This document shows positions 1,974-3,845 of a stretch of DNA of 4,900 nucleotides, in pieces. The DNA lies in IMG/VR virus record IMGVR_UViG_2671180846_000008; one strand, written 5' to 3'. The translations under genes and the position numbers were made by a program. How positions within the stretch are numbered: position 1 is the stretch's first letter; each line of letters starts with the position of its first letter. The notes beneath the pieces are model-generated. The model had not been told where the DNA came from. It ran no database searches and saw only the letters and a program-made list of their open reading frames with translations. Source of the stretch: a virus. Lineage: Duplodnaviria > Heunggongvirae > Uroviricota > Caudoviricetes.

Positions 1974-2214
1974 GAACGAGTATCGGGATGGCACATAGCC
2001 TCGCTCAAATTGGAGTCAGGTTTGTGCCAATACCAGTAGAAACAGACGAAGAATTTCATACGTTNNNNNNNNNNNNNNNNNNNNNNNNNNNNNNNNNNNN
2101 NNNNNNNNNNNNNNAGAAACAGACGAAGAATTTCATACGTTAGCCACATCCCTTTCACAAAAGCTGGAAATGATGGCGGCGAAAGCAGAAGCAAACGAGA
2201 GAGACCCGGCATGA
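1946..2214 (+). CDS. orf63: orf63-like small protein, interrupted by a 50-nt N gap plus a 27-bp duplicated flank; 63 aa if the gap and one repeat copy are removed
   Basis: Pre-gap part encodes MHKASPVELRTSIGMAHSLAQIGVRFVPIPVETDEEFHT. Post-gap part encodes ETDEEFHTLATSLSQKLEMMAAKAEANERDPA, ending at TGA 2212-2214. Removing 77 nt (50 N + 27-bp repeat) restores one continuous 192-nt ORF. Overlaps orf60a by 28 nt. Confidence 0.7.
2065..2114. other. Run of 50 N (unsequenced or scaffold gap), flanked by an identical 27-bp sequence at 2038-2064 and 2115-2141
   Basis: Directly visible: 50 consecutive n characters. agaaacagacgaagaatttcatacgtt occurs immediately before and immediately after the run. 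Confidence 0.98.
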
Positions 2215-2294
2215 CAACAACAGAATGCATTTTTCTGGCAGCAGGCTTCATATTCTGTGTGCTTATGCTTGCCGACATGGGACTTGTTCAATGA
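2211..2294 (+). CDS. Candidate small hydrophobic peptide, 27 aa (MTTTECIFLAAGFIFCVLMLADMGLVQ), possible single-pass membrane peptide
   Basis: ATG overlaps the orf63 stop (ATGA at 2211-2214) and its own stop overlaps the next ATG (ATGA at 2291-2294). Purine-rich stretch gagagag lies 7 nt upstream. Below the ORF-track length cutoff; not independently verifiable. Confidence 0.3.
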   Translation: MTTTECIFLAAGFIFCVLMLADMGLVQ

Positions 2295-2506
2295 CACCTC
2301 AGCAGGAAAACGCCCTTCGCAGCATTGCCCGTCAGGCTAATTCTGAAATCAAAAAAGCCAGACAGCAGTTTCCGGATAAAAACGTCGATGACATTTGCCG
2401 TAGCGTACTGAAGAAGCACCGCGAAACGGTAACGCTAATGGGATTCACACCGACTCATTTAAGTCTGGCGATCGGCATGTTAAACGGCGTCTTTAAGGAG
2501 CGATGA
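2291..2506 (+). CDS. Hypothetical small protein, 71 aa, at the position of lambda orf61 in the exo-xis region
   Basis: ORF MTPQQENALRSIARQANSEIKKARQQFPDKNVDDICRSVLKKHRETVTLMGFTPTHLSLAIGMLNGVFKER lies in the same frame as track ORF 2225-2506. I prefer ATG 2291 because it is stop/start coupled to the upstream ORF. I cannot confirm identity with lambda orf61 from memory. Confidence 0.5.
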   Translation: MTPQQENALRSIARQANSEIKKARQQFPDKNVDDICRSVLKKHRETVTLMGFTPTHLSLAIGMLNGVFKER

Positions 2507-2508
2507 AC

Positions 2509-2598
2509 ATGAAAAGCAAAATCATCAGGGAGCTACAGGCTCCTTTTTTATTGTTCGCATTCACCCTCAAGCGTATTAACCAACAATTCAGGGATTAA
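2509..2598 (+). CDS. Candidate small protein, 29 aa (MKSKIIRELQAPFLLFAFTLKRINQQFRD)
   Basis: Strong Shine-Dalgarno AAGGAG at 2495-2500, 8 nt upstream of ATG 2509. Hydrophobic core APFLLFAFTL. Fills the gap between the neighbouring ORFs. Short, so uncertain. Confidence 0.3.
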   Translation: MKSKIIRELQAPFLLFAFTLKRINQQFRD

Positions 2599-2604
2599 TG
2601 GAAG

Positions 2605-2826
2605 ATGGCAGACATCATTGATTCAGCATCAGAAATTGAAGAATTACAGCGCAACACAGCAATAAAAATGCACCGCCTGAACCACCAGGCTATATCTGCC
2701 ACTCATTGTTGTGAGTGTGGCGATCCGATAGATGAACTAAGACGTCTGGCCGTTCAGGGTTGTCGGACTTGTGCAAGTTGCCAAGAGGATCTGGAGCTTA
2801 TCAGTAAACAGAGAGGTTCGAAGTGA
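2605..2826 (+). CDS. orf73: TraR/DksA-family C4 zinc-finger protein, 73 aa (lambda orf73-like); predicted RNA polymerase-binding transcription modulator
   Basis: Motif C-x2-C-x17-C-x2-C (CCECGDPIDELRRLAVQGCRTCASC) in a 73-aa protein is typical of the TraR/DksA C4 zinc-finger family. Located between the orf61-position ORF and ea22, as in lambda. Stop TGA overlaps the GTG start of ea22. Confidence 0.8.
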   Translation: MADIIDSASEIEELQRNTAIKMHRLNHQAISATHCCECGDPIDELRRLAVQGCRTCASCQEDLELISKQRGSK

Positions 2827-3428
2827 GCGAAATTAACTCTCAGGCACTGCGTGAAGCGGCAGAGCAGGCAATGCATGACGACTGGGGATTTGATGCGGAC
2901 CTTTTCCATGAGCTGGTAACACCATCGATTGTGCTGGCACTGCTGGATGAACGGGAAAGAAACCAGCAATACATCAAACGCCGCGACCAGGAGAACGAGG
3001 AAATTGCGCTAACGGTAGGGAAGCTGCGTGTTGAGCTTGAGGAAGCAAAATCAAAACTCAACGAGCAGCGTGAGTATTACGAAGGTGTTATCTCGGATGG
3101 GAGTAAACGTATTGCTGAACTGGAGAAAAGCGAAGAGCAACTCATTAACGAGCGTGACCATGCTGAGTCTGCTTTAGCTGATATGTACTTCGCAACAACC
3201 GGGGATAGGCCTGAGTGGAGTAACTGTTTCAGTTTTTCAGATGCTGTCGATGCCGTAGTTGACAGAATTGCTGATTTAGAAGCCAAACAGCCATCGCCAG
3301 TAGTACCGGAAGAAAAACCAATGCCTAACCCTCTTAGCATGTACACAGTTGATGCTGTTGCAGCTATTGCAGAGGTGAGAGGCTGGAACGCCTGCCGTGC
3401 AGCCATGCTTAAGGGAGATAAATCATGA
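2823..3428 (+). CDS. ea22: Ea22-like protein, 201 aa, with a coiled-coil central region; GTG start
   Basis: N-terminus MSEINSQALREAAEQAMHDDWGFDADLFHELVTPSIVLALLDERERNQQYIKRRDQENEEIALTVGKLRVELEEAKSKLNEQREYYEGVISDGSKRIAELE recognised as lambda Ea22-like from memory. Heptad-like charged/hydrophobic pattern. The start codon at 2823 is GTG. C-terminal portion not recognised. Confidence 0.8.
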   Translation: MSEINSQALREAAEQAMHDDWGFDADLFHELVTPSIVLALLDERERNQQYIKRRDQENEEIALTVGKLRVELEEAKSKLNEQREYYEGVISDGSKRIAELEKSEEQLINERDHAESALADMYFATTGDRPEWSNCFSFSDAVDAVVDRIADLEAKQPSPVVPEEKPMPNPLSMYTVDAVAAIAEVRGWNACRAAMLKGDKS

Positions 3429-3775
3429 TTAATCGAACCAAACTGGAGCACATCCTCGAGTATGCCAGGCAGCAGAGGCGCTTTGGCCAGCTTTGTAAAA
3501 TTCTGCCAGGAGATATGGTTGAAATCGTGGAGATTGCCATGCGTAAGACTGGCAACTCTCCGGTAAGTCCGGGTGGTTGGATAAGCTGTAGTGAGCGAAT
3601 GCCCGCTCAAGATGATTGGATTTTAATTTATTCAAAGCACGGTGAGTATATGGCAGGACAGGTACAAGAGGAATACGTGGAGTTGAGCGACGGCACTTTA
3701 TCGTGGTTAGGGAACGCCTTGTACTGGATGCTGCTACCAGAACCGCCGCAGGGAGTGAATGATGAATTGGCCTGA
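3425..3775 (+). CDS. Hypothetical phage protein with a DUF551-like C-terminal domain, 116 aa
   Basis: C-terminal pattern W-I-x-x-x-E-R-M-P ... W-x-x-L-P-E-P-P (GGWISCSERMPAQDDW...LYWMLLPEPP) resembles the DUF551 signature common in enterobacterial prophages. ATG overlaps the ea22 stop (ATGA at 3425-3428). Domain assignment is from memory. Confidence 0.6.
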   Translation: MINRTKLEHILEYARQQRRFGQLCKILPGDMVEIVEIAMRKTGNSPVSPGGWISCSERMPAQDDWILIYSKHGEYMAGQVQEEYVELSDGTLSWLGNALYWMLLPEPPQGVNDELA

Positions 3776-3845
3776 AGCATTCACCGCTGTAGGAGTTGCA
3801 ATCGCGGTGGCATTTATTCTGTATTCGCTTTTCCGCTGGGGATAA
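3759..3845 (+). CDS. Candidate small single-pass membrane peptide, 28 aa (MMNWPEAFTAVGVAIAVAFILYSLFRWG)
   Basis: Shine-Dalgarno-like AGGGAG at 3750-3755 precedes ATG 3759. Contains an uninterrupted 19-residue hydrophobic stretch flanked by W/E and R/W. Overlaps the 3' end of the DUF551-like ORF in another frame and ends 4 nt before the next ORF. Confidence 0.3.
   Translation: MMNWPEAFTAVGVAIAVAFILYSLFRWG

Follow-up and report, generated by a model that had tools for sequence, protein, structure and literature searches.

Small single-pass inner-membrane proteins of enterobacteria work by binding larger membrane proteins, and in a pyrBI-type leader a closely following ribosome would block formation of the transcription hairpin. 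Features that recall both arrangements are found in three short open reading frames (ORFs) of a 4,900-nucleotide (nt) stretch of a Caudoviricetes virus (IMG/VR record IMGVR_UViG_2671180846_000008), which was analysed over its whole length and is referred to here as the window. The window covers the exo-xis segment of the leftward early (pL) operon of a lambdoid prophage, is given as the coding strand, and is 99.8% identical to a prophage of Escherichia coli O26:H11. All three frames are probably real, selected and translationally coupled micro-genes of two kinds. ORF1 (2211-2294) and ORF3 (3762-3845) would encode single-pass membrane peptides, and ORF2 (2509-2598) would encode a basic, non-membrane peptide whose codons also carry a terminator-like hairpin.

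The block from exo to orf73 is conserved and has been studied in lambda, 933W and Phi24B (PMC6213356, PMC8614690), using a map of five genes (orf60a, orf63, orf61, orf73 and ea22) to dissect it. Ribosome profiling of lambda (Liu et al., 2013) is cited in a passage of PMC8614690 as having detected a product of 31 amino acids (aa), orf2313, within this block. Bloch et al. (2014) placed a predicted terminator, t2 (from ARNold), and a predicted promoter, p1, in the interval from orf61 to orf73 (PMC4195576). In the same study (Table 4), the mRNA of lambda orf73, ea22 and ea8.5 was below that of the upstream genes, which was not so in Phi24B. The function of Orf73 as a regulator that binds RNA polymerase has also been described (PMC9239242).

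Three short frames at gene junctions

The first-pass annotation of the window had proposed three small hydrophobic peptides, at 2211-2294, 2509-2598 and 3759-3845, embedded in the operon by overlap of start and stop codons. Their coordinates and sequences were reproduced without change, and overlap or near-overlap with the neighbouring genes was seen for all three. The two Shine-Dalgarno sequences that had been named, AAGGAG 8 nt ahead of ORF2 and AGGGAG ahead of ORF3, are present at 2495-2500 and 3749-3754. The third frame had been read as 28 aa from an ATG at 3759. This extra ATG is not conserved, and conservation picks out the next one, at 3762, as the start of a peptide of 27 aa. The three frames and the elements adjoining them are as follows; PGAP denotes the Prokaryotic Genome Annotation Pipeline.

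2211 to 2294, plus strand: ORF1, 27 aa (MTTTECIFLAAGFIFCVLMLADMGLVQ), a predicted single-pass membrane micro-protein between orf63 and orf61.
2291 to 2506, plus strand: orf61 proper, 71 aa, beginning MTPQQ, at the start chosen by PGAP.
2509 to 2598, plus strand: ORF2, 29 aa (MKSKIIRELQAPFLLFAFTLKRINQQFRD), gene of a basic, non-transmembrane peptide.
2527 to 2553, plus strand: terminator-like hairpin AGGGAGCT/ACA/GGCTCCTT followed by a T-run, in ORF2 codons 7-15.
2605 to 2826, plus strand: orf73, annotated as a TraR/DksA-type zinc-finger protein that binds RNA polymerase.
3425 to 3775, plus strand: DUF551 gene; the Shine-Dalgarno sequence of ORF3 lies in its 3' end, which overlaps the ORF3 start.
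3749 to 3754, plus strand: AGGGAG, Shine-Dalgarno-like, for ORF3, within the last DUF551 codons.
3762 to 3845, plus strand: ORF3, 27 aa (MNWPEAFTAVGVAIAVAFILYSLFRWG), of a family of predicted single-pass membrane micro-proteins.
3850 to 4092, plus strand: DUF4222 gene, with its ATG 4 nt past the ORF3 stop.

ORF1 exactly occupies the 77 nt from orf63 to the real orf61 start. The ATGA at 2211-2214 is common to the ORF1 start and the stop of orf63/DUF1382, and the ATGA at 2291-2294 is common to the TGA of ORF1 and the PGAP start of orf61. ORF2 starts 3 nt past the orf61 stop, has an alternative in-frame ATG at 2503 that gives a 31-aa form, and ends 6 nt ahead of the orf73 ATG. ORF3 overlaps the end of the DUF551 gene, and the AAGGA Shine-Dalgarno sequence of the DUF4222 gene overlaps the stop codon of ORF3.

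The three frames had also been called unannotated. This description fits the RefSeq/PGAP records checked and the lambda reference, but an exact peptide look-up returned all three sporadically from GenBank entries as 'hypothetical protein', and ORF2 is annotated as a 29-aa coding sequence (CDS) with a ribosome-binding site in phages 434 (CPT_434_38) and 21 (CPT_21_39). The 31-aa lambda ORF cited in the passage of PMC8614690 on ribosome profiling is a further departure from it. The peptide strings were absent from the literature searched and from the Sakai small-gene supplements. 'DUF551' and 'ZapA' members of the look-up clusters were set aside as pollution from neighbouring genes and are not fusions.

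ORF1 and the start of orf61

Lambda encodes the same ORF1 peptide (31008..30925). In the phage collection, tblastn found ORF1 in 175 records, each match at least 90% identical, and no diverged homologue was found there. In diverged phages, orf63-like genes adjoin ORF2 directly and orf61-like genes adjoin other genes. Selection on ORF1 was assessed in 120 IMG/VR loci picked by flanking anchors and not conditioned on ORF1 itself. This anchor-pattern sample replaced an earlier IMG/VR sample that required 100% orf61 identity, because the earlier one gave too few substitutions in ORF1 (just four synonymous and two nonsynonymous).

Across the 120 loci ORF1 shows no indels, and its inner segment of 130 nt is constant in length. 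The peptide is identical in 100 loci and the frame is unbroken in 119. The substitution events comprise 14 synonymous and 13 nonsynonymous changes, where a synonymous share of 0.25 would be expected (p = 0.003). Since identity within the module never falls below 95%, the test leans on these 27 events. Each of the six common variants is synonymous (p about 3e-4), any one nonsynonymous variant turns up in just one to four loci, and the region holds far fewer common changes than expected of a neutral spacer. This substitution record marks ORF1 as a gene on which purifying selection acts. Its translation would rely on coupling to orf63.

In older annotations the same DNA is given to orf61. A frame of 93 aa is open from an ATG at 2225 and crosses ORF1 out of frame; this start is used for 933W L0070 and Phi24B vb_24B_7c. 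The lambda CDS orf61 (30839..31024) begins 16 nt 5' of ORF1, in the other frame, and also crosses it. The proposal that the ORF1 region belongs merely to the first part of a longer orf61 reading frame draws on this open frame, on an annotation that is current in the literature, and on an additional N-terminal Orf61 helix that was modelled from it, although AlphaFold and RoseTTAFold disagree on the position of that helix (PMC8614690). The substitutions argue otherwise, since 15 of the 19 events in the extension frame are nonsynonymous and four synonymous in the same 120 loci, including the common changes R>G and T>A. Furthermore, distant orf61 homologues (27-32% identity) start with MTP(E/A/Q) at the position equivalent to 2291, through ATGA overlaps on unrelated upstream genes. 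In PhiR5_1, where another gene replaces orf63 and ORF1, orf61 still starts at the equivalent of 2291, so that these proteins begin MTP or MTI right after other genes, and PGAP selects the same start. A longer orf61 is therefore very improbable as the explanation of the ORF1 region, and the 22-residue N-terminal extension from 2225 is, on these comparisons, probably spurious.

The orf61 start at 2291 is GTG in place of ATG in 14 of the 120 loci. This change is synonymous in the last codon of ORF1 (CAA to CAG), which fits the use of both frames at the ATGA junction.

The lambda reference itself departs from most relatives within orf61. The poly-A tract at 2349-2354 (lambda about 30865) has seven A in the lambda reference and six in the window and most relatives. 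The annotated lambda orf61 is a chimera of an out-of-frame overlap with ORF1, 22 real orf61 codons and a shifted tail. Lambda Orf61 was noted as "truncated, unstructured" (PMC8614690), which is accounted for by the extra A that truncates the lambda gene. A 101-aa database protein was also seen in which an in-frame deletion joins orf61, with its upstream extension, to the 31-aa form of ORF2.

ORF2, a peptide gene that contains a terminator-like hairpin

The ORF2 peptide is 100% identical in lambda (30715/30709..30620) and in CPT_434_38. On the pL strand of the lambda exo-ea22 interval, ORF2 is the single ATG-initiated ORF of 31 aa. Given its length and location, ORF2 is very probably orf2313, because this lone 31-aa ORF sits in the interval of the reported 31-aa product. 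Diverged versions of the peptide, 29-32 aa long, are found in phage 21, the Enterobacter phages CobraSix and ENT1, HK639 and a P22-like phage of Salmonella, and the genes 5' of them are unrelated (e.g., methyltransferases and a 77-aa protein). The label 'putative secreted protein' given to the phage 21 homologue finds no support in its hydrophobicity. Using the 31-aa form as a query against protein representatives returned seven clusters, mostly indel variants.

An IMG/VR scan added 80 loci to the family, giving 85 in total, with 72 DNA variants and 49 peptide variants. A frame of 29-31 aa is kept in 84 of the 85, and the start lies in an ATGA in 76. Codons 17-27 (…AFTFNRINRQF…) vary almost solely at third positions, and A17, F18, R22, I23, N24 and F27 are invariant. 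This pattern, in which amino acids are kept and third positions are free, indicates selection at the protein level. For codons 17-29 the ratio of nonsynonymous to synonymous polymorphism (pN/pS) is 0.20, compared with 1.2-1.4 in the other frames.

Codons 7-16 behave differently and are frozen, third positions included. A terminator scan found here a G+C-rich hairpin (2527-2545) followed by the U-run TTTTATTGTT, with a folding energy of -10.2 kcal/mol (z -2.1). The sequence of t2 (PMC4195576) is this same hairpin and T-run, 2527-2553. Hairpin and a run of at least five T are preserved in 84 of the 85 loci through two stem solutions, GGAGC/GCTCC and GGTCGC/GCGGCC. Phe13 is encoded by TTT in 71 of the 72 variants and by TTC in none, although TTC is the preferred codon for the other Phe residues. 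The t2 element is a predicted intrinsic terminator, and the lower mRNA downstream of it in lambda, though not in Phi24B, is indirect evidence for this candidate.

Of 84 loci, 81 have a gene for a TraR/Orf73-like protein (53-73% identity) no more than 550 nt 3' of ORF2, and in 45 of them the distance is at most 50 nt. The layout is that of an attenuator, with hairpin and T-run in codons 7-15 of 29 and a TraR-like gene next, and selection on the peptide is unlike what is expected of a pure attenuator. The opposite proposal is that ORF2 is kept solely as an RNA or DNA signal (t2 and/or p1 before orf73) and that the peptide is irrelevant. It would account for the preserved hairpin and T-run, the two stems and the frozen third positions, and it agrees with the predicted t2 and p1 and with the shifts in expression between orf61 and orf73 (PMC4195576). 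It does not account for codons 17-27, which lie 3' of the T-run and keep their amino acids, for the conserved start overlap and stop position, or for HK639, which has the peptide without the T-run. A role as signal alone is quite unlikely. The signal and peptide readings are compatible with each other, and in the preferred reading both constraints are real. On the comparative evidence, the ORF2 frame both encodes a real, non-membrane peptide and provides a transcription signal in front of orf73.

ORF3, a family with a conserved start in varied contexts

In phages, tblastn found 18 identical and about 74 diverged (48-70%) copies of ORF3, and among 5426 complete E. coli genomes ORF3 was detectable in 1560 (about 29%), in up to seven copies. 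A first sample of 85 loci combined five contexts inspected by eye with 80 IMG/VR loci. All 85 have an unbroken frame of 27 codons and comprise 31 variants at the DNA level and 11 at the peptide level, and over all 88 loci the frame is unbroken in 87. The consensus is M-(T/S/N)-W-P-(E/D)-A-F-x-x-V-G-x-x-x-A-V-x-x-x-V-Y-S-I-C-R-W-G, in which W3, P4, G11, A15, R25 and W26 are invariant.

At least five unrelated genes precede ORF3 (DUF551, an "…IAGIGVEVK" family, an "…SVEDILR" family, 933W L0139 and EaA/Ea22-like genes), and the junction is an ATGA or TGATG overlap in every context. A GGAGG-type pentamer ends 6-10 nt ahead of the conserved ATG in 83 of 86 loci, whichever gene lies upstream. On the 3' side stands DUF4222, a mok/hok/sok locus or another gene. 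With varied neighbours and its own Shine-Dalgarno sequence, ORF3 behaves as a small independent module. Copies often lie about 150 nt 5' of mok/hok/sok toxin loci (hokW, hokD), e.g., in 933W and many IMG/VR loci.

Variable sites are distributed 10/7/21 over the three codon positions, and pN/pS is 0.30-0.34, whereas the remaining two forward frames give 1.0 and about 3.

Membrane propensity and family searches

All three peptides had been credited with a hydrophobic core long enough for a transmembrane helix. This was assessed by an apolar stretch of about 18-20 residues, the 19-residue Kyte-Doolittle mean and the summed Hessa scale. ORF1 has 16 apolar residues, a D and four more (Kyte-Doolittle 2.33; Hessa +0.3, borderline), and ORF3 has an apolar run of 19 residues (Kyte-Doolittle 2.28; Hessa -0.9). 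The hydrophobicity of ORF1 and of ORF3 suffices for a membrane span, and no other ATG-initiated ORF of 24-45 aa in the six frames of the window is strongly hydrophobic. The proposal does not extend to ORF2, whose longest apolar run is 8, whose best Kyte-Doolittle mean is 0.97 and whose Hessa sum is +8 to +11, values that fall short of a bilayer span.

Searches of Pfam-A, PHROGs v4, NCBIfam 20 and PADLOC 2.0 with the three peptides and diverged relatives gave no match above the cut-off, and no defence, toxin or division-inhibitor family matched any of the three. The top matches below the cut-off were phrog_4612 (E = 0.019) and KdpF (E = 0.024), which are attributed to hydrophobic composition. 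No Rfam family, Sok included, matched in the window, and a scan of 1800-4700 found no promoter-like site. When ORF1 and ORF3 were folded as RNA over their full length, neither was more stable than shuffled sequences, and an explanation of these two by RNA structure was dropped on that account.

Weighing of the alternative explanations

The first-pass annotation had supposed that standard annotation overlooks such small genes, and the comparative evidence, with purifying selection in the frame of each ORF, bears this out. The outcome that would have spoken against it, frames broken by stops or frameshifts between conserved flanking genes, was not seen beyond the single exceptions noted for each frame (intact in 119/120, 84/85 and 87/88 loci). 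A number of observations nevertheless weigh against three genuine micro-genes. The exo-xis module with ORF1 is nowhere more than about 5% diverged, the rare ORF1 variants are near-neutral (8 synonymous, 13 nonsynonymous), one copy carries Q27stop, and ORF1 has neither a basic residue nor a clear Shine-Dalgarno sequence. One ORF2 homologue lacks its stop, and HK639 retains hairpin and peptide without the T-run. None of the peptides matches a described family in the libraries searched. The ORF3 copy of the Shigella phage POCJ13 has TGG changed to TAG at codon 3 and is an apparent pseudogene; the POCJ13 record places two minus-strand CDSs over it. In addition, one reverse frame across ORF3 is open in all variants with a pN/pS of 0.33, and pN/pS alone cannot tell ORF3 from this antisense frame; the conserved start decides. 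That the ORF3 signal stems from an antisense gene (a 76-aa ORF at 3734-3964, minus strand), to which the open reverse frame and the POCJ13 annotation lend themselves, is extremely improbable. The antisense start is absent, lies within ORF3 or is shifted by hundreds of bases, giving ORFs of 8-122 aa, and the entire operon is oriented oppositely. The low antisense pN/pS arises because third positions are shared with ORF3.

Were the frames chance ORFs in spacers or regulatory DNA, untranslated and conserved through recent ancestry of a mosaic module, the 95-100% identity of the ORF1/ORF2 block across almost every phage and in some 3,100 E. coli genomes would be expected, PGAP would be right to call none of the three, and the orf61-orf73 interval could stand as intergenic with t2 and p1 (PMC4195576). 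This is highly improbable in view of the frame-specific substitutions in all three ORFs, the few and wholly synonymous common changes in the ORF1 region, and the constancy of length, start and stop in ORF2 and ORF3 at 48-70% peptide identity in unrelated contexts; the 31-aa ribosome-profiling product of lambda, as cited in PMC8614690, also speaks against it. Pure translational relays that hand ribosomes on (in ORF2 to cover the terminator), for which any peptide would suffice, are very unlikely too. The near-universal ATGA/TGATG overlaps and the dependence of ORF1, without its own Shine-Dalgarno sequence, would suit a relay, but purifying selection acts on the amino-acid sequences, and ORF3 combines its own Shine-Dalgarno sequence with six invariant residues (W3, P4, G11, A15, R25 and W26). 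It is also unlikely, if less so, that ORF1 and/or ORF3 are depolarising killers resembling type I toxins, or abortive-infection or exclusion peptides. The first-pass annotation had named host killing, inhibition of division and exclusion as roles open to small phage membrane peptides. The size and hydrophobicity of ORF1 and ORF3 resemble those of TisB, DinQ, ShoB and Hok, ORF3 copies are often found beside hok/sok, and expression from pL would be early. Arguing the other way, the scans found no promoter-like site, antisense RNA gene, long structured 5' untranslated region or Rfam match, and PADLOC, PHROG and Pfam gave none either; both ORFs are translationally coupled within a long operon, and repression of pL in lysogens speaks against exclusion.

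Proposed roles of the three peptides

The preferred reading of all three as selected micro-genes can be carried further. They would be translated from the N-antiterminated pL (exo-xis) operon and coupled to their neighbours by overlap of stop and start codons. ORF1 and ORF3 are proposed to be early lytic, single-pass micro-proteins that would insert into the inner membrane and most likely contact a host or phage membrane protein helix-to-helix within it. In ORF3, the acidic N-terminal WP(E/D) cap (E5) and the C-terminal RWG (R25) point to an N-out/C-in orientation, and the invariant G11xxxA15 suggests a packing interface for a helix-helix contact.

ORF2 would yield a soluble or amphipathic basic peptide, with codons 7-16 serving also as t2 and possibly p1. 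Ribosomes on ORF2 would cover the hairpin, and ribosome traffic could in this way suppress termination at t2. The peptide would have a separate, sequence-dependent role, plausibly tied to Orf73. A more specific version makes ORF2 a dual element for Orf73, in which translation gates t2 and the peptide (…LAFTFNRINRQF…) acts as cofactor or antagonist of Orf73. This version is rather unlikely. Under it, expression of orf73, ea22, xis and int would be coupled to ribosome traffic, and the amphipathic ORF2 peptide might stand in for a helix that is present in DksA and missing from TraR.

Remaining features of the window

The other genes of the window, in order, are as follows.

30 to 326: gam.
332 to 1117: bet.
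1114 to 1791: exo.
After exo and before orf63: orf60a/DUF1317.
Stop at 2212 to 2214: orf63/DUF1382.
Between orf73 and the DUF551 gene: ea22-like gene.
4211 to 4555: hypothetical gene.
4661 to 4879: xis, followed by the start of int.

Gene orf63/DUF1382 is split by a run of 50 N at 2065-2114, with the same 27-nt stretch agaaacagacgaagaatttcatacgtt on either flank. The N-run with its duplicated flanks is a scaffold-gap artefact that leaves the three ORFs unaffected, and the O26 prophage, nearly identical to the window, has an unbroken orf63/DUF1382. Variation is unusually high in the C-terminal tail of this gene (2150-2210), with two synonymous and six nonsynonymous changes among 27 haplotypes; given the constraint on the adjoining ORF1 and orf61, this tail may be disordered or dispensable. 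For the ea22-like gene, candidate starts are GTG at 2823, which overlaps the orf73 stop, and ATG at 2871, which PGAP selects in the O26 genome.

Between 1800 and 4700, eight terminator-like hairpins were seen against 2.7 expected. Besides the one in ORF2, they include the following.

1855 to 1877: terminator-like hairpin inside orf60a.
4140 to 4161: terminator-like hairpin.
4172 to 4191: terminator-like hairpin.
4561 to 4579: terminator-like hairpin.
4614 to 4629: terminator-like hairpin.

We take the hairpin at 1855-1877 to be tL3. It is the predicted t1 of PMC4195576. A back-to-back pair separates DUF4222 from the 4211 gene, and a 32-aa ATG-initiated ORF at 4131-4229 (MNNNPRTRGDFFYLNSLRRVLFYGDKKCQIWL) extends across both of these hairpins (4140-4191) into the beginning of the 4211 gene. 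One hairpin lies immediately 5' of xis, where phage 434 carries an annotated terminator.

A scan of GTDB genomes with orf61 returned mainly lambda contamination and no useful divergence. Many of the species-representative assemblies of unrelated bacteria (e.g., Shewanella, Pseudomonas, Bradyrhizobium, Kitasatospora and Oceanobacillus) contain contigs identical to lambda, most likely contamination from a sequencing control.

Implications for the exo-xis block

About 58% of complete E. coli genomes carry the exo-xis block. At least two extra selected genes (ORF1 and ORF2) would lie inside this conserved block, and a third (ORF3) nearby. The orf61 model used for deletions (PMC6213356) and for structures (PMC8614690) includes ORF1. 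The deletions thus probably take away, and the structural models probably contain, sequence of another gene, and phenotypes assigned to orf61 may therefore need re-attribution. The published lysis/lysogeny phenotype of lambda and Phi24B 'Δorf61' may come partly from loss of ORF1, a suggestion that is likelier than the dedication of ORF2 to Orf73. ORF2 itself offers a clean natural example of a single stretch of 90 bases under simultaneous selection at the level of protein and of RNA signal.

Comparison with known systems

In the literature and family libraries searched, no family corresponding to ORF1 or ORF3 was found, and by their sequences both appear to be phage-encoded small membrane proteins of a familiar kind. 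Like KdpF, AcrZ, MgrB, MgtS and PmrR, they have one hydrophobic helix, and in size and hydrophobicity they are close to KdpF. They differ in having no sequence relationship to these proteins and in being phage-encoded and coupled within an early lytic operon. Type I toxins (Hok, TisB, DinQ and ShoB) are also short hydrophobic peptides, and ORF3 often adjoins hok/sok, but the antitoxin RNA, own promoter and family match of such toxins were not found here. The translational coupling of ORF1 and ORF3 to upstream genes likewise differs from type I architecture.

In its proposed working, ORF2 can be compared with the pyrBI leader, in which a short ORF also runs through a hairpin and U-run just 5' of the regulated gene. 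ORF2 differs in that no sensing step is apparent and the peptide itself is selected. Furthermore, N antitermination should override the terminator in phage infection. That ORF2 is a translated ORF and t2 a predicted terminator was essentially already known, and the sources for orf2313, CPT_434_38 and CPT_21_39 (the first in the cited passage) do not describe a function or family. New, as far as could be found, are the location of ORF2 and t2 on the same bases, the selection on the peptide and its association, in more than one genus, with TraR-like genes. The t2 and p1 of Bloch et al. were treated as intergenic, whereas they lie here inside a conserved and selected coding frame.

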